Source: Gammaproteobacteria bacterium (GTDB lineage: Bacteria > Pseudomonadota > Gammaproteobacteria > SZUA-152). From it: DNA of 64,000 nucleotides. The position numbers were made by a program, and so were the translations under genes. Below, piece by piece: positions 4,940 through 45,720 of the stretch. How positions within the stretch are numbered: position 1 is the first letter of the stretch; every line of letters starts with the position of its first letter. The stretch is from assembly GCA_021647705.1 (NCBI GenBank), contig JAKIUF010000005.1, positions 43,936 through 107,935 of the forward strand, in the 5' to 3' direction. The notes beneath the pieces were generated by a model. It did not search any database. It saw nothing but the letters and a program-made list of their open reading frames with translations, and had not been told where the DNA came from.

Positions 4940-4986
4940 GCATCCATAACAAACAATTTAAAGAAACAATCAGTGAGGAGACAGCC

Positions 4987-5382: not shown

Positions 5383-5387
5383 GCCTA

Positions 5388-5421
5388 AACCCTGCAAGTG
5401 ATCGTACTTGCAGGGTCCAGG
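5388..5421 (+). terminator. Perfect 10-bp stem-loop (CCCTGCAAGT-GATCGT-ACTTGCAGGG) between gcvH and gcvPA; possible attenuator or processing hairpin
   Basis: Perfect inverted repeat read directly from the sequence. A T-rich tract follows after a few nt (TTTTGTTTTTATC). Confidence 0.3.
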
Positions 5422-5465
5422 TTAAATTTTGTTTTTATCAAAACCAACATTAAGTAGATATCGCA

Positions 5466-6824
5466 ATGCCTTTTATTCCCCATACTGAAAATGACACTCG
5501 CACCATGCTCGACACCATCGGTGCCGATTCCATCGAAGACCTGTTTGATGAAATACCCGCTGAATTGCGTGCCCAACCCTTGAGCGAAGTCCCCGCAGGC
5601 CGAAACGAAATGGCCGTCTCCCGACTGCTACAGGCACGCGCGGCACAAGACATACAGGCGTTGTCATTTTTGGGGGCGGGTGCTTACGAACATCATATCC
5701 CTGCGGCAGTGTGGGAACTGACCACCCGTGGCGAATTCTACACCGCTTACACTCCCTATCAGGCCGAAGCCAGTCAGGGAACTTTGCAGTTATTGTATGA
5801 ATTCCAGACCATGATGACCGAACTCACCGCCATGGATGTCTCCAACGCTTCCTTGTACGACGGTGCCTCAGCACTGGCTGAAGCAGTATTGATGGCAGTA
5901 CGTGCCAATCGAAAATCCAAAAGCAAGCGTATTTTGATACCCACCACGGTAAATCCTACTTATCGCAGCGTGGTCAACACTATCGTGCGTCATCAGGGCA
6001 TCCAACTGGAATTAGTAAATTATGATACACAGAGCGGATACATCGACCCAGCCAGCCTGCCAACCGATCCCGGTGACATCACTGCACTGGTGATCCCACA
6101 ACCCAACTTCTTTGGCGCACTGGAAGATGTCGATGCTCTCACCGACTGGGCACAAGCCCACGGCGCACTGGTGATCGGCGTGGTCAACCCCACCGCCATG
6201 GCATTGATTACACCGCCCGGCGAATGGGGTAACGGTACAGGTGCCGATATTGTTTGTGGTGAAGGCCAACCGCTAGGCGCACCGTTGTCTTCCGGCGGCC
6301 CCTATTTTGGTTTTATGTGCTGTGCGCAAAAACATGTGCGGCAAATGCCTGGGCGTATCATTGGTCGCACCGACGATATCGAGGGAAAAACCGGTTATGT
6401 ACTGACACTGCAAGCCCGCGAGCAGCATATCCGCCGCTCCAAGGCCACTTCCAACATTTGCACCAACCAGGGACTACTGACCACAGCAGCCACTATCTAT
6501 TTGTCCTTAATGGGCCCGGAAGGATTACGCCAAACTGCCGAGCACAGCCACGCCAATACACACAAACTGGCAGAAAAACTGTGCGCGATTAAAGGTGTCG
6601 AAAAAATATTTAACCGCCCCTGTTTTCACGAAACTGTATTGCGTCTGCCTAAACCAGCCAATGAGATATTGAGCGCGCTGGATACACAGGGAGTGCTGGG
6701 TGGTTTTGATCTGTCTCAGACTTATCCTGAGCTGGGTAATGCCATCTTGGTCTGCGCGACAGAAACCAAAACCGACAATGATCTTGAGCAATACGCCACG
6801 GCACTGCGCAATGTTCTTGCATAA
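5466..6824 (+). CDS. gcvPA: Glycine dehydrogenase (decarboxylating) subunit 1
   Basis: [35 protein letters not shown]... is typical of GcvPA. 452 aa. Confidence 0.9.
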
Positions 6825-10905: not shown

Positions 10906-11288
10906 CATCAAGCAGTCTTCTTTAATAAGCACATCTTTTTCACCTGACTAATTTATGTAGCATCTCACCCGTGTTTTTCAATTGATTGATGGGGCTCCCT
11001 ATTTATTAAAAGTCCGAAATATCGTTTAAAAAAACCAAATCTTATAACCATAACGCTTACGGTAAATCCAGAATCGCACTAATCATTCTCTATACCACTG
11101 ATCAACCATGAAGTTTTTCAAATAAATACAAGATGGCCTGATTCTTGTATATCTGTTTATTATTATCTGTAAAAAAACATTACCCAATGAAACTTATAAG
11201 CCTTTATTTCGTATCACTTACAGCATTTCTTATTGCGGTTATTTTTCTGAAAATGATCATGTCAGCTATAACTATTAATTAGATACAA

Positions 11289-12650
11289 TTGATGTTAACC
11301 GAAGTAATTACTGCTGAATCAGACCTTGTCAATACATTATCACGCATACAATTCGGCATTACAGCCAGCTATCACATTATTTTCCCCAGCCTTTTGATTG
11401 GCTTGTCTACGCTACTCACTTATCTTTACGGCAAGTGGCTTCAAACAAACAATCATGTGTACCTTGTCAGCTATGAATTCTGGCTAAAATTAGTCGCTAT
11501 CGTATATCTACTCGCGGCTATCACAGGCGTCGCGCTTTCTTCACAAATAGATAATGTCTTTGGTGGTTTTTACCAGCAGTTGGAAAGCGCTTTATCTCCT
11601 ATACGGCAAATCGAATTGATTCTTGCTATCGTTTTAGAGGGCGGCTGCATAGGTGTAATGCTTTTTTATGCCCGCACTCAACGATCTTACGGCCGTTTTT
11701 CCGCAACTATTTTATTCAATATTGGAATCTTCTTAACGGCATTATTTGTTATCAGCAGAAATTCATGGATGAATACACCAGCAGGCATCGAGTGGATTGA
11801 CAATGAAATTCATGTACTAAATTATATCGATATTCTTTTTAACCCAAGCTTCCCATTGCGTTATCTGCATATGATTGTGGCGGGATTAATGGCTACCAGT
11901 TTTGTTGTTATGGGAATTGCGGCCTTTAGGTTACTTAAATATAACCATGATATCGTTGCCATTAAAAGCTTTAACATTGGATTCAAATCGGCATTAGTAT
12001 TTACGATATGCCAATTCATTATTGGTGACCTACACGGCCTTAACGTATACAAACATCAACCATTAAAAATAGCCAGTATGGAAGGGCACTGGGAGACCAA
12101 AAAAGGGAGTGATTTTATTCTTTGGGCAAACCCCAGTGAAGAAAATGAACTCAATCACCACGAAATAAAAATACCGTATGCATTAAGCATAATCCTTACT
12201 CACGAAATTAATGGCGAAGTACTAGGCATAAAGGAGATGCCAAAAAATGAACGGCCTAATATAAGCCTCGCGTTCTATACCTTTCGGATAATGCTTGCCT
12301 TGTCACTACTGATGTTAGCCATGGTGTTAATCGGTGTAATCAAATCAAAATCAAACCCGCTCCATCAGCAGAAATGGTTTTTAAGAATAGCATTATTTAT
12401 GTCACCTTCTGGCTTAATCGCAATTATTGCCGGATGGATTGTCGCCGAAGTTTCCCGACAGCCCTGGGTAGTTTACGGCATGATTAAAACCAGCCAAACA
12501 ATTAGCGCTCACTCAGCCGAGCAAATAATCACTTCGATGATCACCTTCTCACTCCTGTATCTGCTTTTATCGATTGCTGCAATAATATTTGTCGGCAAAG
12601 TTATTCTTAATGGAAACGTACAAACAAAATATAGGATAGGAAGCGATTAA
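11289..12650 (+). CDS. Cytochrome bd-type quinol oxidase subunit I-like protein (CydA family), apparently orphan (no cydB)
   Basis: N-terminal [23 protein letters not shown] matches the CydA signature. Nine or more TM segments. The gene is AT-rich (~36% GC) relative to its neighbours. No subunit-II gene follows. Confidence 0.7.
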
Positions 12651-14431
12651 TGTTTGGCGGCGATTACATCAGTTATATTGATGCCAAGTTTTATCATACG
12701 TGAACGTAAAGTATTGGGGTGCATGGACAATACTGCAGCGGCACCTCTTGTGCCAGAAATAATACCGCGAGTATGCATTAAAATGCGTTCAATGTGTGCG
12801 CGTTCTACTTCTGCCAGTGTCAGTAGCTGTTGAGAATCAGCCCCCGCTACTTCTAGCCTCTTTGGGATAAGACTTATCACATCGACACTGGACATTGTTG
12901 CCAATATTGCGGCACGCTCGATAACATTCCTCAGCTCGCGGATATTCCCTGGCCAGTCATATGCCTCTAACATTGCCAAACCATCACCGGAAAACCCGGT
13001 AAGCGTCTTACCAAATTTGCGTGCTGCACAACTGAGAAAATGTTTCGCCAACAATGCAACATCTTCGTGACGCTCACGTAATGCCGGGGCTTCTATCGGG
13101 AATACATTTAAACGATAATAGAGGTCTTTTCGGAAGCTGCCTTCTTCGACCAACTGAGCCAAGTCACGATTCGTTGCAGCGATAATCCTGACATTAACAC
13201 GGATCAGTTTTTCACCACCAAGGCGCTCGAACTCTTGCTCTTGCAGCACACGCAAGAGTTTTACTTGCGTATCTAACGGCAATTCACCAACCTCATCAAG
13301 AAACAAAGTGCCACCATCAGCAAGCTCAAAGCGCCCTCTGCGGCGATCATGCGCACCAGTAAAGGCTCCCTTTTCATGACCAAAAAGCTCACTCTCTACC
13401 AGGCTTGATGACAACGTCCCACAATTCACCTTTACCAGCGGGTGATCACGCCGCGGGCTATTTTCATGTACTGCATGGGCGATTAATTCTTTACCTGTCC
13501 CGCTTTCTCCTAATACCAGAACGCTCGCATCCGTCGGTGCGACATGTTCAATTTTTTCCAGCATTCGTCGAACAGGTAACGATGTACCGACAACCTCACC
13601 AAAAGCCAACTCTTCTCGAATTTCTTCCTGTAAGTAATTGTTTTGCTCTTCAAGCTGCTCTTTTAATTTTGCTACCTCATCAAATGCTTCAAGAAGATCT
13701 TTTTTAGCCTTTTTTTGCGCAGTGGTATCTTTAAAAACCGCAACAGCTCCCACTAATGTTCCATTCTCATAGATGGGAGTACTGGTGTATTCCACCGGAA
13801 AACAGGTACCATCTTTACGCCAAAATACCTCGCCTTCAATATGATGGATTACACCATCTTTTATTGCGGCATAAATTGGACATTCTTCCTGGGGGTAGGG
13901 CGTTCCATCTTCGTGACTATGATGATGAAGATAATGAATTGAGTGACCAATCATCTCTGCGGCACTCCAACCTGTCATGCGTTCTGCGGCTGGATTAACA
14001 AACGTTGCCTTACCTTCGAGATTAAGCCCGTAAATGCCTTCGCCAGCGGCGTTCAGAATCGACTCAGCATGGTGCTTAAGCACCTTTATGTCAGCTTCGG
14101 ATTTTTTATACTGGCTGATATTAGCCGCAATGACATCCACACCAACAACACTCCCACTCTTATCGTTCACGGGCGTCATCGTAAAAAGAAATAGGCGACT
14201 GGCAATACATTGTTCAAACGCCTGAACCTCGCCATTTAATGCTTTTTGACAGTTTTCAATTAATTCAGTGGAGATGCCAAGGCTGTGCAGCCGCTGCCCC
14301 AGTATTGATGCACCATCATAGGGAAACGGCCATTTTTGTCCTGCAAACTCGATAACACACATATCATGACCCACCCTCCAATAAAAACTTTGGGCGATCT
14401 CTTTTAGCTCATTGCTCATCACGATTTTCAC
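12647..14431 (-). CDS. Sigma-54-dependent transcriptional activator with tandem PAS sensor domains (NtrC/Fis family enhancer-binding protein)
   Basis: Central AAA+ sigma54-interaction domain ([21 protein letters not shown]-type motif region). C-terminal HTH. N-terminal PAS-like repeats. Confidence 0.85.
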
Positions 14432-14802
14432 TTTTACGTTACTGATGTTACGCAGAATTCAGCTATGGGTTCATTATTCGAGAGCGTGGCATCAGTTGCT
14501 TTAAAAAAGACACTTTACTGTCTATTCGTCACCCAATAGAGCATCAAGCCTAACGAAATATCGTGCAAAAGCCAAACAAAGACATAAACCTTCTTTTCTT
14601 GTCACTATATTTCGTACATTTACTATATATCGTAACACTCTGTACGCACCGTAATTCATATTGCATCCGCACGAAACATCTATCCTGTTGAATTAAAAAG
14701 AAATTCATTACAAATAAAAAGATGGCTCATTTTTTGCCTTATCACTGCGAAGGGCTGCACTTAAATAGTGTGCTACCCGCACTAAATCATCTGGAAAACT
14801 CA

Positions 14803-15849
14803 ATGACAAAAGATATGAGCCTTAACATTACCACCGCCCTATTATTGATAATAAGCACTCACACACTAGCAGGCTTCGAACCACTACCACTTATTGCTCC
14901 AGAGCCATCAGACAACCCAAGCTCTGTCGCCAAAATAAACTTAGGGAAACAACTTTTTTTTGACCCTCGCCTGTCACTTGACGGAACAATATCCTGCAAT
15001 ACTTGCCACGATGTTTCTGGTAACGGCACCGATAGCGCCGCAGTCTCAACGGGTATCGGTGGACAAAAAGGAGAGCGTTCTGCACCCACCATATGGAACG
15101 CCGCCTTCTTAAGCTCACAATTTTGGGATGGGCGCGCCGCTACGCTTGAGGAACAAGCAAAAGGTCCGATTCTCAACCCTATTGAAATGGGAATGCCACA
15201 TCAGGAGGCTGCTGTTGAGCGTATTGCGGCAATCCCTGGATACCGAAAACAATTCGCCGCGATCTTTGATGAAAAAAAACCCGTAACTTATGACAATATC
15301 GCCAAAGCAATCGCGGCCTATGAGCGCACACTCATCACACCCAACAGTCCGTTTGATCGTTTTTTAAGAGGGGATAAAACAGCGCTGTCTGCACAAGCAC
15401 AGAAAGGCATGAAGGAGTTCGAAGAAATTGGCTGTATTCTTTGCCATAAAGGGCCAGCTCTCGCAGGACCATCGACGCTGAAAAAAGGTGAAATTTATTT
15501 TCAATGGTTCCCGGCCATGCCCAGCGACTACGATGAAAAATACAAACTTAAAGAAGACCTTGGATACAATCAGGGAAATGATAAAGCCCCTACAGGTAAA
15601 TGGCGTGTACCCACTCTGCGTAACATCGCCCTCACAGCACCATACTTTCATAACGGCTCAGTAAAAACATTAAATGAAGCCGTGCGAGTAATGGCCCGCG
15701 CACAACGCAATCGCGTACTAACAGATCAACAAGCTGCAAACCTTGTCGCATTTCTTGAGAGTCTGACAGGTGAATTTGTTGTACAAAAAAGACCTGAACT
15801 TCCGCCAATGGGCGATGAGGATCAACAATCAACGCTTTCAAACTATTGA
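14803..15849 (+). CDS. Di-heme cytochrome c peroxidase (CcpA/MauG family)
   Basis: Signal peptide, then two CXXCH motifs (CNTCHD and CILCHKG) with CCP-typical spacing. The ATG at 14803 was chosen inside the longer tool ORF. Confidence 0.85.
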   Translation: MTKDMSLNITTALLLIISTHTLAGFEPLPLIAPEPSDNPSSVAKINLGKQLFFDPRLSLDGTISCNTCHDVSGNGTDSAAVSTGIGGQKGERSAPTIWNAAFLSSQFWDGRAATLEEQAKGPILNPIEMGMPHQEAAVERIAAIPGYRKQFAAIFDEKKPVTYDNIAKAIAAYERTLITPNSPFDRFLRGDKTALSAQAQKGMKEFEEIGCILCHKGPALAGPSTLKKGEIYFQWFPAMPSDYDEKYKLKEDLGYNQGNDKAPTGKWRVPTLRNIALTAPYFHNGSVKTLNEAVRVMARAQRNRVLTDQQAANLVAFLESLTGEFVVQKRPELPPMGDEDQQSTLSNY

Positions 15850-15966
15850 AATAAGCTCCACAGAGCAGAGATGGGGGGCACAGACACATGAACAAAATAA
15901 AAAGAGGAAAGCCTGTGATTTACAATAAAATACAGTCAAACAGCCATGACCTTTGAGGTGTAGACA

Positions 15967-17169
15967 TCAAAACCCTAACATCACGCTTAGAACTAACCTT
16001 GAGTCAGATGCAAATGATTTTAATGCTGGATCATTATCGACATGGGAAAATTTATACAGGTTTGCTTCAACAAACCATTGATGCTTGATACGTGTTTTGG
16101 CTCGAAGATCCCAAAGAGTTGAATCATAATCCAGGTCACGGGTTAATCGCAGCTCATATTCGGTGCTGTTTAAGTCATTTACAGCAAGGCGAAGACCAAG
16201 AAAAATATCATTCTGAAAAGGCGTTATAGGCGAGCTACTATCAGATTTTCGTCCATCATAATAATACTCACCATACAATGTCAGCGCATTTTTGCTGGAA
16301 CCCATACGTGGAAATTCACGTTCCAGACCAATACCCAAACCGGTAAAATTATCATCACTCGTAGAGCGATAAGTTGACTCCAGCTTCACCAACAATTGCC
16401 CTTTGATCCATAACAGTTCAAGCCCGGCTTGTTCTATCCGGGCATAATTGGGTTGTAATGTGATGACATGAGCAATGCCATCCAGATTTGGTGTAAAATA
16501 AGGTGTCCGGGCATGGCCTTTGTAATAAGAGACAGCAAACTCCAGGGATGCCAGCATTTGTGAAATACGCACTGCGGAAGAAAGTGTATTTTGTCCCTTT
16601 TCAAACTCTGCATCAGAATATGCAAATGCTGAGTTCCTGAACCGGTCTTTCCTTTCAGCCAAACGCTCTTCCCGGCTATAAGGCAATAACCATACATCAG
16701 CCCTACCATTATCCAGTAACCAGGAAAGCCTCCCTCCTGGAATACCTTGCTTTATGTCCCCCTGGAAATCCTCAACGCGATCTCTCGGGTTCAGTATGTC
16801 CACCGGGCTGAATGCTTCCAGCACACCCCAGCGTTCCATTAACATACCGCCAGACATTTCAAGCTGTGAAGCGTAGTAACTCAATGCAAGTTCACGCACA
16901 TCACCCCGCCCGGATTTATTCGCCGCAGGATGATAACGGCCAAAAACAGACACATTGATGTCGGTATTACGATTTATCTGACCGTTATAATCCAAGGTTG
17001 TAGCAAGCGCATACTGACTTTGACGATCAGACTGTTCACTGAACAGCGGGGCTTCAGCATAATACTCATACCGGCCTTCCACCTCTCCTTTAAATGTTGC
17101 TCCATTGGCTATCGAATATAGTGCTAACATCGAAAAAACCAATAATACAGAAGCGTGGCCTTTCTTCAT
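15967..17169 (-). CDS. Outer-membrane beta-barrel protein (DUF1302-like), last gene of the PKS/MMPL operon
   Basis: Signal peptide. Alternating amphipathic beta-strand pattern rich in Y/G. C-terminal ...SVMLGF ending in Phe. Sits directly downstream of the LolA-like gene. Confidence 0.55.
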   Translation of the reverse strand: MKKGHASVLLVFSMLALYSIANGATFKGEVEGRYEYYAEAPLFSEQSDRQSQYALATTLDYNGQINRNTDINVSVFGRYHPAANKSGRGDVRELALSYYASQLEMSGGMLMERWGVLEAFSPVDILNPRDRVEDFQGDIKQGIPGGRLSWLLDNGRADVWLLPYSREERLAERKDRFRNSAFAYSDAEFEKGQNTLSSAVRISQMLASLEFAVSYYKGHARTPYFTPNLDGIAHVITLQPNYARIEQAGLELLWIKGQLLVKLESTYRSTSDDNFTGLGIGLEREFPRMGSSKNALTLYGEYYYDGRKSDSSSPITPFQNDIFLGLRLAVNDLNSTEYELRLTRDLDYDSTLWDLRAKTRIKHQWFVEANLYKFSHVDNDPALKSFASDSRLVLSVMLGF

Positions 17170-34929: not shown

Positions 34930-35230
34930 CGTAGGGTGGGCACGTTTTTTGTGCCCACGCGTGTACCAGCTCGGCCTGCATTAAACCAACTGTGATAAAA
35001 ATGTCTTGGCAGAAACAATTACCGGACGCTTTATATCAATAAACTCGCCATCAATTGCCACATTGTAAAATAGTCAAGACCAAAACAAGACACCCCTTAA
35101 AATGGTCGAGATTATACTGACTATGCTGACTGGGCCTGAATAAATGAAAATCCAACGCAAAGGCGCGAAAACGCAGAGGACGCAAAGAAAAGGGGGCGTA
35201 GGGTGGGCACGTTTTTTGTGCCCACGCGCA
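34930..35230. repeat. Pair of direct REP-like palindromic units CGTAGGGTGGGCACGTTTTTTGTGCCCACGCG (34930-34961 and 35197-35228)
   Basis: Identical 32-bp units, each a GTGGGCAC/GTGCCCAC hairpin with a GTAG head. They lie in the YyaL-rlmI intergenic space. Confidence 0.55.
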
Positions 35231-36554: not shown

Positions 36555-36574
36555 TGAATTAAGTATTGCACCCT

Positions 36575-36960
36575 CTTGTGCATCACACTGTTGATCTGGA
36601 TATGATCCTTCCGATGCGTATGCCAAAAAACGCAATAAAGCAGAACGGTTCACCGGCATCTTCTTTGCCCATAGGAAGATGACAAGCTTATCGAAACTGA
36701 GTTAAGGCTCCTTCGGGAGCCTTTGTCATTCATAACGCTCTTAAAAACATAGCGCTATCCCCGTCAGCCAACAAGCCAAGTCGGGTAGGGTGGAACAAGC
36801 GTAGCGGTTCCACCAAACAGGATAAGGGACATATTCAAGGTTCGATTGCTATCGACGTCCACCTTGACTCACCGTTTGCTGGTGAGTTGTTGTTGAATAA
36901 GAGATTTTTTCTCCGACTTCAGGCAATCGGAGTTTTGTTGCAGAGTGTTGATTTTTTGTC
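36575..36960. repeat. Copy 1 of a ~300-390 bp structured repeat (UUCG-tetraloop hairpin GGCTCC-TTCG-GGAGCC, REP unit, two hairpins followed by T-runs)
   Basis: About 90% identical to 38320-38890, with a ~150-bp indel between the copies. Ends with CTCCGA-CTTCAGGCAA-TCGGAG-TTTTGTTG. Confidence 0.6.
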
Positions 36961-37029
36961 AGCGGTCGTAAGCTATAGAGGTGATTTGTTGTTCCGTAAT
37001 CGCCTGTTGGTGGAACCGCTGCGCTTGTT
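36783..37029. repeat. Inverted pair of REP-like units GTAGGGTGGAACAAGCGTAGCGGTTCCACC (36783-36815 forward, 36996-37028 reverse) flanking ~180 bp
   Basis: The two 30-bp units are reverse complements of each other with 1 mismatch. Each is itself a GGTGGAAC/GTTCCACC hairpin. A third forward copy lies at 38719-38751. Confidence 0.6.
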
Positions 37030-37524
37030 CCACCCTACGGGTTTACTCTGTGCTGAATAGAGAAAATCAAAAGGGATCAAGTATCATATTGACGATTTAT
37101 TTTAACCGCTAATTTAATGGAATTAATCTCATCCTTCATACGCAACTTCCACTTTGAATAGTTTAAGCATTTCTGAAGAAATAATTTTCTACCAACTAAC
37201 CGCTAATATGATACTTGACCTTCATTTTTTTATCACCCGCATTTTGTCGAACTAACGAATTAAGCAAAATCATCAAGTTAAAAATAGGTTGGCGGTGAGT
37301 TTGCGAACCCCAACGCTACCTCAGCATGCAGTTTAAGAGGCACTGGGAATTAGGTCGCATTTTCAATAAAATAAATTTTATGGGAATAGATAACATTCAT
37401 ATCTTTATCCTGTTTTTATAAAAAAGTGGCTTGCCCCTTGTGCCAAAAACAATCTATAAAACGGATGAATTAAGTATTGCGCTCTCTTATTTTGATAGAA
37501 AAATGGCTCATATGGTCAGCCGTT

Positions 37525-37926
37525 TTATATATTGAATAGCTGTATTGGGGTGTATTTTTTATAATGAGAAAAATCCTTATCCGTCGTGAATATTTCTGAT
37601 TTCAGTCGAAACGCAACCGCACAAATCAAAAAATCAACATGTGAACCTTGAACACCTTTTGACCGACAGGTATTCGAAAATGTTGCTGCCTGAACATAGT
37701 CACCGTCAATGATTTGCTCATTTTCAAAATAGCGTAATTTGCTATTTAATTTCTCAAACTTAGATTTGACGCTATAGCCCGACAAAACCTCCTGCCTGAT
37801 TGGACCAAGCATTACCACCCTTTGGTCTGAAATCAGGGTTTCAAGCTCCTTAACACAAGCCTCATATCCTTTTTTTTTGGATCTTAAAGCGTATGACCAT
37901 ATTGGCGTATCTACGATGACCTTCAA
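37525..37926 (-). CDS. vapC: PIN-domain toxin (VapC family)
   Basis: MKVIVDTPIW... with conserved acidic residues of the PIN fold. 133 aa. 4-bp overlap with the upstream antitoxin gene. Confidence 0.7.
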   Translation of the reverse strand: MKVIVDTPIWSYALRSKKKGYEACVKELETLISDQRVVMLGPIRQEVLSGYSVKSKFEKLNSKLRYFENEQIIDGDYVQAATFSNTCRSKGVQGSHVDFLICAVAFRLKSEIFTTDKDFSHYKKYTPIQLFNI

Positions 37927-38120
37927 TGCGCTCTGCCCTTTTTATAATCGTAATCAGCATCAGGATCCAGCTTCCCAAACAACTCTATAATTTCCAATTG
38001 CTTACGACGATTCACAAACTCTTTTAAAGCATAATTAACCGTATCTTTTTTAGTTTTTAACCCGCTGAGCAATAGAGCTTCTTCCAATAATTTGTCGTCA
38101 ATTGCTAAATTCGTTGCCAT
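37923..38120 (-). CDS. vapB: VapB-type antitoxin (small DNA-binding protein)
   Basis: 65-aa MATNLAIDDKLLEEALLLSGLKTKKDTVNYALKEFV... translationally coupled to the PIN gene. Confidence 0.5.
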   Translation of the reverse strand: MATNLAIDDKLLEEALLLSGLKTKKDTVNYALKEFVNRRKQLEIIELFGKLDPDADYDYKKGRAH

Positions 38121-38319
38121 TTTGCATCTCCTTTTTCTCACACAATAGGCGACACATAGCAGTGTGTCAACAACGAATCCTCACAGGGTACCGGTAAAAA
38201 ACCCAGGTACGGCTAACGCCATACTCAGTGCCCGCCCTGAAGGCGCATGCTTCCAATAATCTCCCGCTCAACAATGTTAATTTGAAGAACATCTGCGCCC
38301 GTGAGCAGCTTAAATCGGC

Positions 38320-38890
38320 GTTTCCTGAGCCACTTATACAACACACTGTTGATCTAGATATGGTCATTCCGATGCGTATACCAAAAAATGCAATAAAGCA
38401 GAATGGTTCATTGGCATCTTCTTTGCCCATAGGAAATTGACCATCCTCGGTTACCCAAATACTGCATCCTGGTGCTAAAAAAATGTACGGATAACCCCTC
38501 TCACGGGACATTAATCCGCTAGAAAAAACCGGTAACGGCATACGCCCCAGTCTTGCAATCAAGCAGAAATGTATTCAACAGTGAACAGTGCAGTCAGCCC
38601 GGCAAAGCGGTGACAAGCTTCTCGAAGCTGAGTTAAGGCTCCTTCGGGAGCCTTTGTCATTCATAACGCTCTTAAAAACATAGCGCTCCCCCCCCTCCGT
38701 CAGCCATCAAGACAAGTCGGGTAGGGTGGAACAAGCGTAGCGGTTCCACCAAACGGGATAAGAGACATATTCACGGTTCGATTGCTATCTACGTCCACCT
38801 TGACTCGCCGTTTGCTCGTGAGCTGTTGTTGAATAAGGGCTTTTTTCTCCGGCTTCAGGCAACCGGGGTTTTGTTCACTGCAACATAGAC
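38320..38890. repeat. Copy 2 of the ~300-390 bp structured repeat (carries an extra ~150-bp internal segment)
   Basis: Shares CACACTGTTGATCT...GCAATAAAGCAGAA... and ...CTGAGTTAAGGCTCCTTCGGGAGCCTTTGTCATTCATAACGCTCTTAAAAACATAGCGCT...GTCGGGTAGGGTGGAACAAGCGTAGCGGTTCCACC... with copy 1. Confidence 0.6.
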
Positions 38891-38945
38891 CATACACTGG
38901 CAGACAAAGAGATTGACAACTGATTAAGGCGGTAAACAAAAGAAA

Positions 38946-39057
38946 AATAGGGGTCAAGTTTATTGTATAAAATCAAAAAATATTTTCGTACTCAATTTTT
39001 GCTGGGAAGGGTATGGGTAGCTAATGTCATTATACAATAGGCTTGACCCCTTCACTC
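38946..39057. repeat. 110-bp TIR element copy 1 (MITE-like; ends AATAGGGGTCAAG...CTTGACCCC)
   Basis: Near-identical to 40661-40770 and 42629-42757. Terminal inverted repeats GGGGTCAAGTTTATTGTATA / TATACAATAGGCTTGACCCC. Confidence 0.6.
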
Positions 39058-39233
39058 TTACGAGACTAAATCACTTCAACTTTCGTTTACGGCCTGCTGC
39101 CTTGCGGCACGTCGTGCTTAACATTTAGGATTACTCCCGCCTGCCCGACGCTTGCTACCCGGTGGCTGACCTGCCTTGCCGGGGCGGGTTTCTCACCCGC
39201 TGGAATAATCGACCTGGCTCGGCCGCACACCCC

Positions 39234-39725
39234 TTAACTTTTTTTGTTGTCTGAAAAATTCTCATTTCTAATAATTTGTTTTAACTTCAGATAATACCCA
39301 TTTGAGGTCTCTACCCAAACGCCGTCCCATTCACCGCCTTTGTTTGTCCATCGACTAGCAAGGAAAAATTCAACAGAATGACCGACATCTACACCCTTGT
39401 TTTTTAAGTCTGCACGCAAACTTAAAAATGCATCTTGTGATTTTATCGTCATGATTTTTTCAGGTTTATTAGTAAACTCGCTTTTTGTATAAATTATTCG
39501 CCAAATAAATATGCTACTGACTCCCCTGTCAGCCTCTTCACGATACAACAACTTAGCATCTGCTGGAAATTCCAGGCCGCTTATTTTTTCTATATGCTCA
39601 ACCGGTTCAGACAATACCTGATCCGGTACTTCTAATAGGCGCGAAACAGAAAAAACACCCAGTACAAAGAGAAAACTCAGTACTATCACGAATAGTAGGA
39701 TCAGCTTTTTCACATTACCTACCAC
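39234..39725 (-). CDS. Hypothetical membrane-anchored protein (163 aa) in the integron cassette region
   Basis: N-terminal TM helix LILLFVIVLSFLFVLGVF. 11-bp overlap with the upstream ORF 39715-40398. Confidence 0.5.
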   Translation of the reverse strand: MVGNVKKLILLFVIVLSFLFVLGVFSVSRLLEVPDQVLSEPVEHIEKISGLEFPADAKLLYREEADRGVSSIFIWRIIYTKSEFTNKPEKIMTIKSQDAFLSLRADLKNKGVDVGHSVEFFLASRWTNKGGEWDGVWVETSNGYYLKLKQIIRNENFSDNKKS

Positions 39726-40398
39726 TGGATATGGGCTCCATTTTGGATAAAACGGTTTTATCGCCCCATTTATGCTGACTTTTAATTTGACCGCACAAAT
39801 TAAATTCTTGAGCTAAACCTTGTCGATGGAACAACCCCATGAATTCGTCGGTAATGTCTACATTGAAAATTGTTACCGACTTGCCTTTATCCCAATTGTA
39901 TCTATCGACACAATTGAAAACGAAATCCATTTGATATCCTTTACCGCCCACACCGTCATGTTCCACAATAAGGTTCGCTTTCCCCCATATTGAATATCCA
40001 CCAACCGCAAAAAACCAGTTTTTACTTTCAATTTGTCTGTTATACTCTTGCACCATTCGAGAAGCTACGATATTGTATGCTCCGGGCGGCAAAGTCTCAG
40101 CGAAAACCTTTGCTTCAGCTGCTTCCCTAGTATGTAGCAATTTAGCACTTTCCACTTCATCAACCATCCCCTGTAAATCAAACTCGTACTCTTTTCCCGA
40201 ATTCAATAAGTAGTGTAGCATGTGCTTGGCGGCATCATCACCAACTAGAACAGTTGCATGCACCATATAATTCAATATTGCGACTTTTAACGCGATCATT
40301 TTAGCTTCAGGTTTCTCACTATTCCAGAGTCCTGCGCCGGGATCATATTTTACGACTGGGTCAGTCGTTCCAATTATAAAATTTGGCATCACTCTCAT
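39715..40398 (-). CDS. Hypothetical protein (227 aa) in the integron cassette region
   Basis: Uninterrupted ORF, minus strand like all cassette ORFs. No recognisable motif. Confidence 0.5.
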   Translation of the reverse strand: MRVMPNFIIGTTDPVVKYDPGAGLWNSEKPEAKMIALKVAILNYMVHATVLVGDDAAKHMLHYLLNSGKEYEFDLQGMVDEVESAKLLHTREAAEAKVFAETLPPGAYNIVASRMVQEYNRQIESKNWFFAVGGYSIWGKANLIVEHDGVGGKGYQMDFVFNCVDRYNWDKGKSVTIFNVDITDEFMGLFHRQGLAQEFNLCGQIKSQHKWGDKTVLSKMEPISSGR

Positions 40399-40660
40399 CC
40401 CTTAATTTTTTCAATCTAAATTTCCTCCACCCTATAATGACAAAATCATACTGTCAAACGAACGAAAGGCTTGTACTGTGCTTTGTTTTAACACTGATGA
40501 AAGAAGGAGAGACCTTTCGATTTCTGCTCAGCTCAATCAGTGCCACTCTGCAAATTGTCCGCGTTAATCACTTTTGTTAGCCTTTTATTGGCACCCACAA
40601 CAATTTCGCTCCAATATGCTTATGGATTAAAACAGATAGTAATCTATGTTTATAAAATAG

Positions 40661-40770
40661 AATAGGGGTCAAGTTTATTGTATAATATCAAAAAATATTT
40701 TCGTACTCAATTTTTGTTGGGAAGGGTATGGGTAGCTAATGTCATTATACAATAGGCTTGACCCTTTTAC
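40661..40770. repeat. 110-bp TIR element copy 2
   Basis: 97% identical to copies 1 and 3. Abuts the truncated 3' end of the IS91 N-terminal fragment. Confidence 0.6.
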
Positions 40771-41046
40771 TTTCAGGTCATTGAGCGCCAAGGGTATTGT
40801 GAAGATGGCGTGGTGATGTGGGCAGTCCAGCAATACCCTTTGGGTGTTAATCAGCCATTCTTCGGTTGGCATGCCTCGACATTGGGGGCAGGCGCAGTGT
40901 TTACAGGAGTTGTACCAGATGCCGTTGAGGTGGTTGTTTTCACAGTATTGCGCATGTCCGCCCAGGGCGGCGGTACGACAGGTGGAGAGTTTGTCCAGGG
41001 CTTTCAGATGATGTAGCGGTAAGCTGACTTTTTGTCCGCTTGTCAT
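40675..41046 (-). mobile_element. IS91-family transposase, N-terminal zinc-binding fragment (pseudogene; reading frame runs into the 110-bp element)
   Basis: LGGHAQYCENNHLNGIWYNSCKHCACPQCRG...HHHAIFTIP matches the N-terminal Zn-binding and first conserved block of IS91/Y2 transposases. No HUH/Tyr catalytic region follows. Confidence 0.6.
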
Positions 41047-41103
41047 GTGCTACCAAAGCACAAACGAAACGTTGCGGAGGCCTGTCCGGCTCTACTGCGC
41101 CTG

Positions 41104-41781
41104 TTATGCATTGGCTTTTATACGTGACAACATTGAAATGTATGGGTTTGCTCTGATAGTTATCAATTTTTTAAACGTAGCTTCAATACTTTTATCATTC
41201 TCAGGCATTCGTTTTAAAAGACTAGAATTGCTACCCTCATAATACTGAAAAATAGAAATGTATGTTTCATACCACATTACCCACTCAGCCTCTTTGGGAA
41301 CCCACCCAACTAAGTCCAAATATTCTTTTTGCAGATGTAAAGATTCTTCACTCACACCATGCGCCTTAAAAGGGTATATATACAAGAATCTAATAAACTC
41401 ATCCAGCAACGCACCAGCCCATGTCGTAATCTCTAGATCGCTAACTGCCTTTTCTACTCTTTTGTCTAGAATATCTTTTTGATAATGGTAAACAGCATTC
41501 CTACAGCGCTTTATTGTTAGAACATAGTCTTCATATACTGATAGAAGCTCATTTATTGCTTTATCTGACTCTTTTAGGCTATACCAGCCTTCTACAACAA
41601 CGTACAAAGATGCCAACCATTGACTACTGTATATAAAATATTTTACCCCACTTTCTTCGTTTTTAATTTTTCGCTCAAAATTATGGCGTTCAATATCAGA
41701 ACGATAAATGTATTTACCCCACGAAGCCACCTCAAGTATTTTTTCTGGCATAGGTATCTTCCAATGCATAACGATAGCCAT
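41104..41781 (-). CDS. Hypothetical cassette protein (225 aa)
   Basis: Long minus-strand ORF. Its stop overlaps a GTTATGC core-like motif at 41100-41106. Confidence 0.5.
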   Translation of the reverse strand: MAIVMHWKIPMPEKILEVASWGKYIYRSDIERHNFERKIKNEESGVKYFIYSSQWLASLYVVVEGWYSLKESDKAINELLSVYEDYVLTIKRCRNAVYHYQKDILDKRVEKAVSDLEITTWAGALLDEFIRFLYIYPFKAHGVSEESLHLQKEYLDLVGWVPKEAEWVMWYETYISIFQYYEGSNSSLLKRMPENDKSIEATFKKLITIRANPYISMLSRIKANA

Positions 41782-41832
41782 AAGCCGCGCGGCTTTTTTG
41801 CGTCGGCTTGATGGCCTGGTTATGCCAGAAAT

Positions 41833-42297
41833 TCAAAATAGTTGCCCAACTATATAATGCCAACTCATCAGGCTCGCAATAACAATTAATGCTGGAGCAT
41901 GAGGTATTAGTACAGGTGCCAAAAACATGTTAGATAATATTTCTTTGTACCATGACTGAGAAGAGGAAAATACCTCAAACCAACTTGTATAAGCTTGTAA
42001 TGGAAATATTTCTTCTGATTCTCCTCTGAAGTATTCCTCAATTGCAGATATCCTTGGTCCTGAGCAATACTGAAAGAATTTCCACAACGCCTCCATGACC
42101 CAGAGAAAAAGTGCGGCGAGGCCCGCTAGCACCATAATTGACATTGACTTTGATTGAAATGCCAAGCCGATACCGCCAAGCGCGACAGTTATAGACCACC
42201 CCTTAATAAGCAACGCTCTTCTATCAAAATCTTCATAAGCATTTTGCAGTAACAGATACTCATCCTTAAGAAGATTATCTAAGTGCTCTTTTTCCAT
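41833..42297 (-). CDS. Hypothetical membrane protein (154 aa) cassette
   Basis: Two or three predicted TM helices. Its ATG is preceded (minus strand) by GTTATGACCAATTAGGAATCTATGA, i.e. a core-like GTTATGA next to an attI-like sequence. Confidence 0.5.
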   Translation of the reverse strand: MEKEHLDNLLKDEYLLLQNAYEDFDRRALLIKGWSITVALGGIGLAFQSKSMSIMVLAGLAALFLWVMEALWKFFQYCSGPRISAIEEYFRGESEEIFPLQAYTSWFEVFSSSQSWYKEILSNMFLAPVLIPHAPALIVIASLMSWHYIVGQLF

Positions 42298-42490
42298 TCA
42301 TAGATTCCTAATTGGTCATAACTTATTAGTATTAGGCATATTTGCCCGGTTATCCGGCAGTATTACACGAAGAATCAGGCACATTTGCCTGCTAATCACT
42401 GAAAACCGGTCAACTTGCCCTGATATGTTGATATTGGGGTGGTATTTAGGCATATTTACCCGCTATTTTTCTCAAACTCTATGCTTCGGA
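42298..42490. other. Second, degenerate attI-like region (duplicate of 44659-44739 with a ~100-bp insertion)
   Basis: AACTTATTAGTATTAGGCATATTTGCCCG at 42322 and GGTATTTAGGCATATTTACCCGCTATTTTTCTCAAACTCTATGCTTCGGAAATCACC at 42440 match the sequence immediately upstream of intI at 44676-44739. Confidence 0.55.
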
Positions 42491-42491
42491 A

Positions 42492-42628
42492 ATCACCATG
42501 TCAACTCAGAATTCTGGAAAAGATTTATTGACAGAAATGCGCGATTTAATGCGACGGTTGCATTATTCCATCCATACTGAACGCGCTTATTGCGACTGGG
42601 TTGCGCGCTTTATTCGTTTTCATCAGAG
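42492..42628 (+). pseudogene. Integron integrase 5' fragment (first ~43 codons of an intI paralogue), truncated by the 110-bp element
   Basis: [43 protein letters not shown] is 95% identical to the N-terminus of the intact intI at 44740. The frame then runs into the repeat. Confidence 0.7.
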
Positions 42629-42757
42629 AATAGGGGTCAAGTTTATTGTACAATATCAAAAAATATTTTCGTACTCAATTTTTGTTGGGAAGGGTATGGG
42701 TAGCTAATGTCATTATACAATAGGCTTGCCCCCTTCACTCAGCCCCCTTCACTCAAG
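42629..42757. repeat. 110-bp TIR element copy 3 (with a 12-bp tandem duplication CCCCCTTCACTC at its right end)
   Basis: Near-identical to copies 1 and 2. Lies between the intI fragment and the IS91 C-terminal fragment. Confidence 0.6.
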
Positions 42758-43207
42758 CACTATCCGGAAAAATGGGTCGTTGATTGTAAATCGGTCGGTT
42801 CCGGTGAACAGGCGCTGATTTATCTGGGGCGTTATCTCTACCGGGGTGTTATTCGGGAGAAGGATATTGTGAGCTGTGAAAATCGGAAGGTGACTTTTCG
42901 TTACCAAAACAGCAAGACAAAGCAGTGGGATTTCAAAACGGTTTCGGGCGAACAATTCTTGTGGCTGATTCTCCAACACGTACTCCCGAGACGCTTTCGA
43001 CGCACACGCAATTTTGGTTTCCTGCATCCCAACAGTAAACGGTTGATTCAGGTGATTCAGCTTTTGTTTGGGCTCGATATAAACCGGACTCTGGCATGGA
43101 TGAAAGAAAGACCCAAAATGATTTGTCGGTGTTGTGGTGGAAAGATGACGATCATCAAAACCCGGCTTTCTCCCATCCGTCTGCTGGCGGCTTTGGTTCC
43201 AACTTGA
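42758..43207 (+). mobile_element. IS91-family transposase, C-terminal fragment (pseudogene)
   Basis: EKWVVDCKSVGSGEQALIYLGRYLYRGVIREKDIV...CRCCGGKMTIIKT matches the C-terminal conserved block and terminal Cys cluster of IS91-family transposases. The N-terminal two-thirds are missing. Confidence 0.6.
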
Positions 43208-43540
43208 TGATGGAGAATAATGACCCGTTATGTAACCTCACCTCATAAAGCAGAAAAAATTTCAGTGGTACGTGCTGAGGGGTGAACTTGCCTGCGATTA
43301 GGGAAAAACTGACAACTATCCTTCTGATACAAGAAAAAATTGCCGCAATGGTAATATAAGGGCTTAAGTTCAAGGCTTGCGGAATATTATTCGCCTCGAA
43401 TGGCAGCGAACTCAAAAAGCTATCTTCATGGTCAATCTATACTCCAGCCACCGGGCTTGTCCAACAAACCGGTTCAGATCGCGGTTCGTTCCTCACGCGA
43501 TCTAACCTAATTCGTTATGTTGATTTTGTTTTAAACATAT

Positions 43541-43990
43541 TTAATTTAGATACCTAATACCTACGATAAATGCTGCTAGTGAACCAAGCTGAATTACACA
43601 ATAATTGATCATGAATTCTACTCGATGCTCCTCTCTTTGCATTAACCTACAAAACGGCCCAAGAAAATACCCTGTCGATTTCATTTGGTAAGCACTAAAC
43701 GATGCCAAAGCAGACAGCATGAACCAAAATATTGCACCACCAAAATCACCTACATCGTCTGCAACAATTATGTAGAAGATGGAGATTACAATAAGTCCGT
43801 AAACTGGTCTCATTAATTTTTTGTTAATTGTTTTTTCTAAATTATTTTTCCTGACATATTCACGCTGCTGATTATCGCTTACTTCCAATATTGAGTTATA
43901 TTTTTCTAACGCAATACCGCAATTGGCACACTGCCAATCTGGAACAGCATTTTTTTCGTTTTTAATATACTTGCACTTAGGGCATTTCAT
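43541..43990 (-). CDS. Integron cassette 2: membrane protein with N-terminal zinc-ribbon (CPKC...CANC), 149 aa
   Basis: MKCPKCKYIKNEKNAVPDWQCANCG, then 2-3 TM helices. Its ATG lies ~33 nt downstream (minus strand) of the attC1 crossover site. Confidence 0.55.
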   Translation of the reverse strand: MKCPKCKYIKNEKNAVPDWQCANCGIALEKYNSILEVSDNQQREYVRKNNLEKTINKKLMRPVYGLIVISIFYIIVADDVGDFGGAIFWFMLSALASFSAYQMKSTGYFLGPFCRLMQREEHRVEFMINYCVIQLGSLAAFIVGIRYLN

Positions 43991-44019
43991 AATTAACTAT
44001 TACCGATCTACAATTTTTT

Positions 44020-44136
44020 ACATAACGCCAACATCAGCGGTTGCTGAAAGCGACGGTTTTTTGTGTGACAATGAGCGACAGCGAATAACACAAAAAAACG
44101 GCGCTTTTGGCGATCCGCTGGATGTTCTGGTTAGGC
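44020..44136 (-). other. attC site of cassette 1 (117 bp)
   Basis: On the minus strand: R'' GCCTAAC overlaps the stop of ORF 44140-44658; the site ends in R' GTTATGT. Imperfect internal palindrome (CCGCTGGATGTTCTGG... / ...CCAACATCAGCGG) with extrahelical bases. Confidence 0.6.
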
Positions 44137-44139
44137 GAT

Positions 44140-44658
44140 TTACGTATATTCCGCAGGCGGCAGATCACCGCACACCATTGCTGGTTTAAAAATAAACTTT
44201 GTCTCATATCGTTTTTTTCCAAAAATTCTTCTGTGTAGCGAGAACAACCAATTGAGCATTGATTTAGGTGCATTGTATTTAGCGGTAATCTGAAATGAAT
44301 CAGATTTAATACCTAAAGACTTCCCTCCACCATCAGGATATTCGTTTAAATTCTGTTCATCGAACCTAAAAAGGTGGATCATCTGTCCAGGTGCCATTTG
44401 AGGTATTACTGTTTCCATAATTTCTCCAAGGCTTTCCCTTGGCTTATTTCTTTTTAATCCTCCAGATACTTCTAACTCGATATCCTCAGCTCTAACACTT
44501 CCAATATTTACAATACTAAATTGAATGAAAATATCTTGTTCAGGGCTGAATCTATTTCTTAACTCATAATATATTTCAAGAACAGGTTTATTGTGATTGG
44601 ATATTATTTGTAATCCAACTCTCATCATTCCGGCGACAGTTGATCCTGCGACTTCCAT
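44140..44658 (-). CDS. Integron cassette 1: hypothetical protein (172 aa)
   Basis: ATG is 14 nt downstream (minus strand) of the attI core GTTAGGC. No recognisable domain. Confidence 0.55.
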   Translation of the reverse strand: MEVAGSTVAGMMRVGLQIISNHNKPVLEIYYELRNRFSPEQDIFIQFSIVNIGSVRAEDIELEVSGGLKRNKPRESLGEIMETVIPQMAPGQMIHLFRFDEQNLNEYPDGGGKSLGIKSDSFQITAKYNAPKSMLNWLFSLHRRIFGKKRYETKFIFKPAMVCGDLPPAEYT

Positions 44659-44739
44659 ATTTTTTATCCTCGCCTAACTTATTAGTATTAGGCATATTTA
44701 CCCGCTATTTTTCTCAAACTCTATGCTTCGGAAATCACC
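44659..44739. other. attI recombination site of the integron (core GTTAGGC on the minus strand at 44672-44678)
   Basis: Lies between intI and the first cassette. Contains the TATTAGGCATATTTACCCG repeat, also present twice in the degenerate copy at 42298-42490. Confidence 0.55.
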
Positions 44740-45720
44740 ATGTCAACTCAGAATTCTGGAAAAGATTTATTGACAGAAATGCGCGATTTGATGCGGCGTT
44801 TGCATTATTCCATCCATACTGAACGCGCTTATTGCGACTGGGCTGCGCGTTTTGTTCGTTTTCATCAGATGAAGGCGCGGGATGCACTTTTTGTGGATGC
44901 AGAAAAAAATGTGGAGGATTTTTTGACGCATTTGGCGGTACAGGAGGCTGTAGCGGCTTCGACGCAGAACCAGGCTTTCAATGCGTTGGTCTTCCTGTAT
45001 AAGCGGGTACTGCTACAACCTCTGGAAAATGTGTCGGCAACCCGTTCGCGTAGAGAACCACGAATTCCGGTGGTGTTGACGCGAGAGGAGGTGAAGCAGG
45101 TATTGACTTTGCTGGAAGGAACAGCGGAGTTGGTGGTAAAGCTGTTGTACGGTTGTGGTTTACGGATTACCGAGGCGGTGCGTTTGCGGGTGCAGGATAT
45201 CGATTATGGGTACAAGCAGGTCACTGTGCGTAATGGTAAGGGTAATAAGGATCGAGTGACACCGTTCCCCGCCATTCTGGAGTCTCTGCTAAAGAATCAT
45301 CTGGAGCGGGTGATGGCCGTTCATGAGCGGGATCTTGAGGATGGGTTTGGCGCGGTTTATTTGCCTTATGCTCTGGCTCGCAAGTATCCAAATGCGGAGA
45401 AGGAGTGGAATTGGCAGTATGTTTTTCCCAGCAGGAAGTTGTCGGAAGACCCTCGGAGTGGGATGACGCGTCGGCATCATGTGGATCAGTCGGTGGTGAA
45501 TAAGGCCATTCGGCAGGCGGTGCGCACAGCGGAAATCACGAAAAAAGTGAGTGCGCATACCTTTCGTCACAGCTTTGCGACCCATTTGCTGCAACGGGGC
45601 ACAGATATTCGCACTATTCAATCGCTGTTGGGGCATCGGGATGTGCAGACAACCATGATTTATACTCATGTATTAAAGCAGGGTGGAGAGGGTGTGGTCA
45701 GTCCTTTGGAGGATTTGTAA
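44740..45720 (+). CDS. intI: Integron integrase (tyrosine recombinase, IntI family)
   Basis: N-terminal [22 protein letters not shown]. IntI-specific additional domain [21 protein letters not shown]...[11 protein letters not shown]. Catalytic box [12 protein letters not shown]...[16 protein letters not shown]. Divergent from a minus-strand cassette array. Confidence 0.9.

Follow-up and report, generated by a model that had tools for sequence, protein, structure and literature searches.

What occupies the interval between the housekeeping gene rlmI and the type II secretion operon of an uncultured gammaproteobacterium, and is it a place where genes are exchanged as cassettes? The question arises from a 64,000-nucleotide stretch of contig JAKIUF010000005.1 (assembly GCA_021647705.1), hereafter the window, which belongs to a metagenome-assembled genome (MAG) derived from hydrothermal-vent metagenomes; all coordinates below are window positions. 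A sequence-only reading had proposed a sedentary chromosomal integron beside the type II secretion genes, with an integrase gene, an attI site and an array of nine minus-strand cassettes that included a vapBC toxin-antitoxin pair. We are highly confident that the locus is a small chromosomal integron lying between rlmI and the type II secretion operon, and the central part of that proposal, an integron with minus-strand cassettes next to the secretion genes, agrees with model scores, comparative attI analysis and attC structure. The locus contains an integrase of the IntI type, an attI whose position and ancestral layout can be recognized, two canonical attC sites, four cassettes with defined boundaries, and several interrupting elements whose nature can be named. 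The proposed extent and cargo do not stand, and the earlier reading had overlooked a second platform, a deletion in attI, an inverted attC, three miniature inverted-repeat transposable elements (MITEs) and an intron fragment.

The integrase gene intI (44740-45720, plus strand) is intact and encodes a protein of 326 amino acids without a frameshift. In a profile search, its product scored 447.4 bits against TIGR02249 (cutoff 265) and covered profile positions 1-315 of 315, while Pfam assigned the domains PF13495 (Phage_int_SAM_4) and PF00589 (Phage_integrase). The Vibrio cholerae integrase VchIntIA (PDB 2A3V) aligns with residues 7-324 (E 5.5e-90), including the segment specific to IntI proteins, and the catalytic motifs R, K, H-x-x-R, H and Y, among them IYTHV, are complete. 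Because the extra segment is present in the alignment, the gene is assigned to IntI; the insertion described from the letters alone, whose absence had been named as the sign of another kind of recombinase, is borne out by both the full-length profile match and the VchIntIA alignment. On this sequence evidence, the reading frame encodes a genuine integrase of the IntI clade. The same protein is deposited as MCF6255421.1, an exact match that NCBI already names “integron integrase.” Against the IntI1-type equivalog NF011946, it reaches 302 bits, below the cutoff of 435.

Sites of the attC type were detected with a scan of our own rather than with the IntegronFinder covariance model. The scan searched for pairs of boxes (....AAC with GTT....) at a distance of 45-160 nt, with spacers of 2-8 nt and paired arms, and recorded which arm carried an extra base. 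Across both strands of the 64 kb, it returned three strong attC-like sites (44020-44136, 43459-43520 and 41766-41825), all at most 2.4 kb from intI, and two to three marginal hits elsewhere. In a control on related integrons, 23 of 24 oriented hits were located on the strand opposite intI, as expected. The folds of the three strong sites have z-scores of -6.0, -4.1 and -3.4, each with a bulged G. Two of these sites are canonical, so the attC structures on which the earlier proposal depended do exist.

The first of the four bounded cassettes, which we call cas1 to cas4, begins at attI-1 (44672-44710, minus strand), a simple site of the form GCCTAAT-N8-GTTAGGC with its crossover at G44678|T44677. 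The core of this site, AATAAG|TTAGGC (44678 to 44672, minus strand), lies 62 nt from the intI start and 13 nt before the cas1 start codon (44658), which agrees with the GTTAGGC core previously placed at 44672-44678. Cassette cas1 (44026-44677, minus strand) comprises an open reading frame (ORF) of 172 codons (44140-44658) and attC1 (44020-44136, 117 nt), which is in canonical orientation, with R'' GCCTAAC at 44136 to 44130 and R' GTTATGT at 44026 to 44020, boxes that had likewise been located correctly. As single-stranded DNA, the bottom (plus) strand of attC1 folds with -31.1 kcal/mol (z -6.0; 0 of 200 shuffles were as good) and displays a bulged G, the counterpart of an extra base in the 5' arm (catcCagcgg vs ccgctgatg). 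The R'' box had been said to overlap the stop codon, which in fact lies at 44142-44140 with three bases in between. Cassette cas2 (43515-44025, minus strand; ORF 43541-43990, 149 aa) encodes a protein with an N-terminal zinc ribbon and a hydrophobic C-terminal half. Its attC has been reduced to the R'' box ACATAA(C), found as ACATAAC at 43520 to 43514; beyond AA|C, the cassette gives way to the conserved end of an IS91-family element.

Cassette cas3 (41772-42321, minus strand) contains an ORF of 154 codons (41833-42297) and attC3 (41766-41825, 60 nt), also in canonical orientation, whose bottom strand folds with -16.6 kcal/mol (z -4.1) and has the bulged G. Its protein gives a partial PADLOC match to PDC-M50A (E 1e-4, 20 bits) that is too weak to interpret. 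In cas4 (41103-41771, minus strand; ORF 41104-41781, 225 aa), the attC is again reduced to its R'' box, GCATAAC at 41109 to 41103, which overlaps the stop codon, and the next 58 nt have no fold (z -0.6). The units that follow attI-1, attC1, attI-2 (described below) and attC3 start with TTAGGC, TTATGT, TTATGA and TTATGC. Their own R'' boxes, GCCTAAC, ACATAAC, GCATAAC and GCATAAC, complement the starts of cas1 to cas4 at 6/6, 6/6, 5/6 and 6/6 positions, and this correspondence is what the circular-cassette model predicts.

Boundaries are therefore defined for cas1 to cas4, and none was found to the left of cas4. Instead of nine cassettes, four units are bounded, and only cas1 and cas3 retain an intact attC, the other two having lost theirs through IS91-family insertions. 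To the left of 41766, our scan found no attC, even with relaxed thresholds, at which degenerate sites could still escape it. A candidate at 40486-40582 was rejected, with an arm of only 4 bp. The four cassette proteins have no significant family match in Pfam, NCBIfam or PADLOC. The GC content of the cassettes, put at about 50% in the sequence-only reading, was measured at 0.34-0.44, compared with 0.50-0.56 in the flanks.

A second platform (42316-42627) is present between cas2 and cas3, consisting of 130 nt of the 5' end of an intI gene and a complete attI. The attI-2 site (42316-42497, minus strand) is full length, with three GGSAAATRTGCCT repeats and the core GTTATGA at 42322 to 42316, and the adjoining intI' (42498-42627, plus strand) preserves 43 codons from the start of a second intI copy, with two amino acid differences from intI. 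A repeat search gave 97% identity between the platform copies across 182 nt, and the overall identity is 96-97%. Two sites with a GTT crossover (44672-44678 and 42316-42322) mark places where a first cassette begins. Five related integrons (loci L016, L002, L004, L010 and L009; IntI 78-87% identical) align contiguously with the second platform, not with the first. Since the homology of all five to attI-2 ends exactly at AATAAGTTA|, after which a different cassette follows in each, the recombination point can be located. The ancestral attI of this clade was about 176 nt long, with three GGSAAATRTGCCT repeats.

Alignment with the five relatives and with attI-2 reveals that attI-1 is a deletion derivative: 114 nt between repeats 1 and 3 are gone, and only the simple site is kept. 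The same 114-nt deletion is found in an independent read set (L082). No LexA box was detected in attI, either in the window or in close relatives. The possibility that intI' is the integrase of an IS91 element, rather than a second copy of intI, was ruled out: it shares 97% identity with intI and has a full attI ahead of it, and the IS91 element encodes another integrase, one without the IntI insertion.

A candidate for the cassette promoter Pc was identified at 44718-44746 on the minus strand (TTGACA, 17 nt, TAGAGT), with its -35 box overlapping the intI start codon. It matches the consensus at 10 of 12 positions and is the best promoter-like site of the region. A copy at 42476-42504 (minus strand) was duplicated along with the platform, so that each half-array would have its own Pc if the candidate is functional. 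The heptamer TTGACAT is invariant among the relatives, a conservation that coding constraint could explain.

Between the cassettes, the array has been invaded repeatedly. The segment 42756-43520 (plus strand) is the remnant of an IS91-family element that we term int-tnp, for its combination of a recombinase gene with a transposase gene. It retains the C-terminal third of the transposase (42756-43207, plus strand; NF033538 positions 216-355 and PF04986; 73% amino acid identity to a full-length copy), a conserved 250-nt tail that is 83% identical to that of locus L087, and an attC-like hairpin. This hairpin (43459-43520), the third strong site of the scan, is oriented on the plus strand with its bulged G on the minus strand. 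It was ruled out as the attC of cas2, given that its bulged base lies on the opposite strand and that its sequence is conserved beside the same transposase in about 65 unrelated loci. By this comparison, it is identified as the inverted attC of the int-plus-transposase element. The transposase fragment and intI' are both on the plus strand, contrary to the earlier statement that every ORF between rlmI and intI is on the minus strand.

A second IS91-family transposase pseudogene fragment (40771-41083, minus strand) begins within 27 nt after the cas4 R'' box and encodes the zinc-binding N-terminal domain (PF14319; NF033538 positions 16-111 at 41046-40772). Relative to the protein P0158, it has an in-frame stop and has lost its start. 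The domains Zn_Tnp_IS91 and Y2_Tnp (HUH, two tyrosines), by which IS91-family elements are recognized, are thus both present in the array, as fragments only. This second fragment is 27% identical to the N-terminus of the full-length int-tnp transposase, compared with 73% for the first fragment against the same protein, and the two therefore do not come from one gene; they belong to different lineages. A single IS91 element split by an inversion between MITE copies was ruled out for the same reason, and also by a gap of 105 residues between the fragments (profile positions 111 to 216) and by the direct, not inverted, arrangement of the MITE copies.

The MITE itself is 111 nt long, with inverted ends AGGGGTCAAG...TTGTATAAT of about 23 nt that contain TGTATAAT. 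Repeat searching located three copies on the minus strand (38945-39056, 40660-40770 and 42628-42738), which are direct, 96% identical by blastn and found nowhere else in the window; its terminal repeat has six matches in the window, where 0.01 would be expected. The MITE is absent from all of the approximately 180 other loci that we compared, and no target duplication is visible at any of the three copies. All three are situated at truncation points. Copy 3 joins intI' to the C-terminal transposase fragment, with a 14-nt tandem duplication at 42728-42755; copy 2 abuts the N-terminal transposase fragment at 40771; and copy 1 follows the stub of a group II intron. This arrangement suggests that recombination between MITE copies caused the deletions. 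The intron stub (39081-39230, minus strand; Rfam RF02003, 54.1 bits with a gathering threshold of 49, E 6.8e-10) corresponds to the 5' D1 fragment (39081-39202), and the remaining group II intron parts are absent. It starts with GTGCG about 5 nt past the stop codon of a 163-aa ORF, shares the orientation of the cassette ORFs and is cut off before MITE copy 1. No attC hairpin was detected upstream of it.

To understand the int-tnp remnant, we compared 80 metagenomic loci and several long contigs gathered with the transposase fragment; loci L024, L026 and L084-L166 belong to the family. The intact element is about 3 kb long and has four parts: a left end, a recombinase, a transposase, and a tail followed by a hairpin. 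The left end is conserved as TTGGACGRAGCCGC and always begins after a G (G|TTGGACGRAGCCGC). The tyrosine recombinase matches TIGR02249 with 151 bits in two separate stretches and hence lacks the IntI insertion. In every inspected copy, a frameshift at an A8 tract (GGGATAAAAAAAAGA; at ~6030-6050 in L084, ~3475 in L097, ~1545 in L098 and ~1425 in L118) is needed to reach the catalytic HxxR...Y region; this tract could be a site of programmed slippage or a phase-variable switch. The transposase, with 372 amino acids, belongs to the IS91 family (360 bits).

At the right end, the 250-nt tail is followed by a hairpin of about 58 nt, GTCCAAC-AAAC-GGTTCAGATYGTGG...CACRATCTAACC-TTATTC-G. The variable triplets of its stem covary (TGT/ACA in 33 copies, CGT/ACG in 20, CGC/GCG in 3, GGT/ACC in 3 and TTT/AAA in 2), with only 4 of 65 unpaired, and the bulged C is kept in 60 of 65. 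On this side, conservation ends at G|TT, and the next four bases are R-K-R-Y in 65 distinct junctions, GTTAGGC being the commonest. Where both flanks are visible, joining them restores a single canonical attC of the surrounding array; the element interrupts it between A and C of R'', and no bases are duplicated, as we worked through for L097. In three loci (L118, L144 and L163), int-tnp copies are arranged head to tail, and the R' of the junction, GTTGGAC, pairs perfectly with GTCCAAC, the R'' of the element itself, much as in a closed cassette circle. When the element is set on the plus strand, the other attCs of these arrays are on the minus strand in 33 cases and on the plus strand in one, while the composite target sites at the left junction are on the minus strand in 9 of 9.

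The right junctions (G|TTRRRY) and the left ones (G|TTGGAC) lie inside attC and do not correspond to GTTC/CTTG, the target beside which IS91 elements, with their ori and ter ends, move by rolling-circle transposition. They are typical of a tyrosine-recombinase crossover instead, and the overall pattern, as far as sequence comparison allows, is that of a conservative recombination resembling cassette insertion, at a position that mirrors the normal crossover and always antisense to the array. Its enzyme could be the recombinase of the element, the host IntI or the transposase. Tentatively, and with somewhat less than even confidence, we regard 42756-43520 as the relic of a widespread and apparently undescribed integron parasite that carries an attC mimic. 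Such a parasite would integrate into the R'' box of an attC already in the array, exactly at RYYYAA|C, by the top strand, in a cassette-like and conservative manner; it would always sit antisense to the array and would decapitate the attC of the upstream cassette. An IS91-type element that targets attC is not described in the literature searched, a comparison outside of which the ISfinder entries lay. The one related statement is a remark in PMC9229058 that places ISShvi3, also of the IS91 family, next to an attC in a Shewanella integron.

The chromosomal setting of the integron is supported from several sides. The source contig measures 162 kb and has housekeeping genes on both sides of the array, the stop codons of intI and gspF are only 65 nt apart, and no tni, tns, rep or mob gene lies next to the array. 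The same arrangement is found in a second MAG, with 99.995% identity over 21.2 kb. The cas1-cas2-transposase fragment-intI' and cas3-cas4 junctions are each contained in single contigs (VAPF01068494.1, VAPF01048071.1, SRR6439365 and SRR32233992), and the cas2-tnpC-MITE-intI' junction also lies within a single contig of GCA_021647965.1. On the other hand, the position is not shared with relatives. The closest IntI proteins (89-92% amino acid identity) occur in unrelated contexts, and neither gspF nor rlmI is found close by in the 80 loci whose intI genes are most similar. In one relative (L171), whose flanks are 83-90% identical, rlmI is followed by an mrp antiporter operon, with no integron and no type II secretion genes. 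When positions 11200-17100 of that locus are compared with the window, the genes upstream of window position 36555 (a polyketide synthase gene, PfkB, a sulfatase, YyaL and rlmI) are shared, after which the relative continues with mrp/pha and rpoS-nlpD. A further relative (L173) shares only vapBC. The integron marks a synteny break after rlmI.

These observations divide the earlier description of a “sedentary chromosomal integron” into two parts. The chromosomal part stands, by the 162-kb contig and the housekeeping flanks. The sedentary part does not, as the array is small, with four bounded cassettes, and its attCs (117 and 60 nt) have unrelated stems; nor is the locus common to a species or genus, with one relative lacking the integron and another sharing only vapBC. 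Mobile integron classes 1-5 do not accommodate it either, judging from the NF011946 score and the housekeeping flanks.

How the integron would work, and how its present form came about, can be proposed in outline; current recombination activity, the use of Pc and the history of the locus are what we infer here. IntI would recombine the folded bottom strand of an attC with attI at G|TT, so that cassettes would enter head-first beside the promoter overlapping the intI start and would leave by recombination between attCs. For the attI-1|cas2 recombinant, the junction sequence would be ...CTAATAAG|TTATGTAAAAAATTG (AATAAG|TTATGT). Read along the minus strand from intI, the order is the candidate Pc, attI-1, cas1, cas2 with the int-tnp remnant, a MITE, intI' with the Pc copy and attI-2, cas3, cas4 with the second IS91 fragment, a MITE, two ORFs, the group II intron stub and the third MITE, followed by the flank of vapBC and rlmI. 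Historically, two platforms would have come into tandem, after which recombination between MITEs would have removed the greater part of both the second intI and the mobile elements.

Several points weigh against so complete an account. For two of the four cassettes, excision by way of their own attC is no longer possible, and attI-1 lacks two of the three repeats of its relatives, a loss that, by analogy with the accessory sites DR1 and DR2 of attI1, may have lowered its efficiency. The evidence for Pc is a consensus match, in a region with 7 promoter-like hits compared with 7.8 in shuffled sequences; degenerate attCs in the distal part could have escaped our scan, and the origin of the duplicated platform is a reconstruction. 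No ongoing activity or cassette shuffling was seen: the assemblies of this population, compared in search of the shuffling suggested by the sequence-only reading, have the same cassette order throughout, in the second MAG as in independent assemblies. This identity of order says nothing either way about current cassette exchange.

The same points nourish the most serious alternative, a fossil whose platform remains recognizable while the array is frozen and decays under invasion by insertion sequences, MITEs and introns. We consider this unlikely, although it deserves real weight. It would account for an array that is identical in two MAGs and several independent read sets, for the 114-nt deletion in attI-1, for the destruction of two of four attCs, for a second intI reduced to 43 codons and for a distal 5 kb without a detectable attC. 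However, the first intI retains its whole length and all catalytic residues and is free of frameshifts, attI-1 still has its simple site, two canonical attCs are undamaged, and the samples possibly represent one clonal population, in which case invariance reveals little. That the gene is instead an ordinary XerC/D-like or phage integrase, and the hairpins chance palindromes or terminators, has a negligible probability. The XerC, XerD and XerA models do match (E 1e-42 to 1e-46), but their 145-158 bits fall far under cutoffs of 220-335, whereas the TIGR02249 cutoff is exceeded by 180 bits and the IntI-specific segment aligns with VchIntIA. Furthermore, the hairpins have R''/R' boxes, spacers of 5-6 nt and a bulged base on the right strand, and the cassette starts complement their own R'' boxes.

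Two further explanations concern the source of the sequence, and we regard both as very improbable. An integron carried by a plasmid or transposon, or a contig that is chimeric or wrongly binned, would fit the GC content below flank level, the closest IntIs in contexts without gspF or rlmI, and the relative that lacks an integron at this position. Opposed to it are the housekeeping genes that flank the array in a single 162-kb contig, the agreement of the second MAG, the NF011946 score below its cutoff, the lack of adjacent tni, tns, rep or mob genes and the 65 nt between the intI and gspF stops. Similarly, the second intI/attI copy could be an assembly artefact, from a collapsed or chimeric repeat, and short-read contigs do break at this repeat. 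Yet the copies differ, with 96-97% identity, two amino acid changes and a 114-nt indel; the junctions on both sides of the copy are unique, and single contigs of VAPF01068494.1 and GCA_021647965.1 run from cas2 through tnpC and the MITE into intI'. 

Among the known systems close to this locus is the chromosomal integron of V. cholerae (VchIntIA/IntI4). The two integrases align over their entire length and share the extra segment and the catalytic residues; in both systems, intI diverges from attI and a same-strand array, the cargo is mostly of unknown function, and the attCs have R''-L''...L'-R' boxes with a bulged G in the bottom strand. Unlike the V. cholerae integron, with about 180 cassettes and uniform V. 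cholerae repeats (VCRs), this locus has four bounded cassettes with attCs of 117 and 60 nt, is not conserved in a close relative, has an attI with three GGSAAATRTGCCT repeats and contains a duplicated, truncated platform within the array. The attI1 site of class 1 integrons has the simple site GCCCTAAAACAAAGTTAGGC, which the GCCTAAT-N8-GTTAGGC of attI-1 resembles, and the accessory sites DR1 and DR2. As in attI1, the upstream direct repeats are candidate accessory sites, and a promoter candidate is located at or inside the 5' end of intI. In contrast to class 1, the integrase is not IntI1, the 3' conserved segment (3'-CS) and the Tn402 backbone are lacking, and the live attI is without accessory repeats, through a 114-nt deletion between two of them.

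The int-tnp element resembles the IS1111-attC elements and group IIC-attC introns in occupying attC sites of cassette arrays always at the same position and in the same orientation. It differs from both in combining a Y2 HUH transposase with a Xer/IntI-like tyrosine recombinase and an attC-like hairpin of its own, in being joined without duplication at RYYYAA|C of R'', and in using the strand opposite to that of normal insertion. For the second IS91 fragment, a parallel is offered by the IncN IMP-6 plasmid NZ_AP018758.1 (positions 4856-6320), in whose class 1 integron an IS91-family transposase forms a regular, correctly oriented cassette between aadA2 and qacEdelta1. That cassette starts with TTGAAC after the aadA2 attC and ends with its own attC of about 97 nt, GTTCAAC...G|TTAGAT. 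The window fragment 40771-41083 is 50.6% identical to the plasmid transposase and is likewise in cassette orientation right after R''; unlike the plasmid copy, it is a pseudogene fragment that has kept no attC. Both IS91 remnants in the window thus derive from integron-associated IS91 lineages.

In other respects one more environmental chromosomal integron, the locus constitutes a compact natural case of integron decay and remodelling. The duplicated platform gives the distal cassettes an attI of their own together with a copy of the candidate Pc. The relatives define an attI family with three conserved repeats, which are candidate integrase-binding sites. If confirmed as new, the int-tnp element would represent a third kind of attC-targeting parasite; if its proposed behaviour is true, it would provide a natural system that recombines the “wrong” attC strand, with a bearing on how strand choice is enforced in integron recombination.

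The remaining features lie toward rlmI. Two overlapping ORFs of 227 and 163 aa (39234-40398, minus strand) have a cassette-like low GC content; no attC or cassette boundary was detected at them, and Pfam, NCBIfam and PADLOC returned nothing significant. The vapBC pair (37525-38141, minus strand; NF047959 and PF09957) had been counted among the cargo. However, window positions 37229-38256 align at 92% identity with the DNA that immediately follows rlmI in GCA_027000605.1, the same value as for the core genes there, and no attC was found near vapBC. Conserved after rlmI at core divergence and without an attC, vapBC is better regarded as a conserved chromosomal flank than as demonstrable cargo.

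The flank has been rearranged in turn. About 660 nt (36566-37228) separate rlmI from vapBC in the window and are absent from L173; this extra segment is partly repeated at 38330-38875 (88-95% identity), and a second copy of the final 36 nt of rlmI lies at 37229-37264. Next to this duplication, a 200-nt insertion (37265-37464) is flanked by a repeat of about 9 nt, GAATTAAG. Palindromes resembling repetitive extragenic palindromic (REP) sequences occupy intergenic DNA on either side of rlmI, where a 32-nt repeat is exact between 34930-34961 and 35197-35228. A further REP-like unit, GTAGGGTGGAACAAGCGTAGCGGTTCCACCAA, has three copies in both orientations at 36785-36816, 37007-37038 and 38721-38752.

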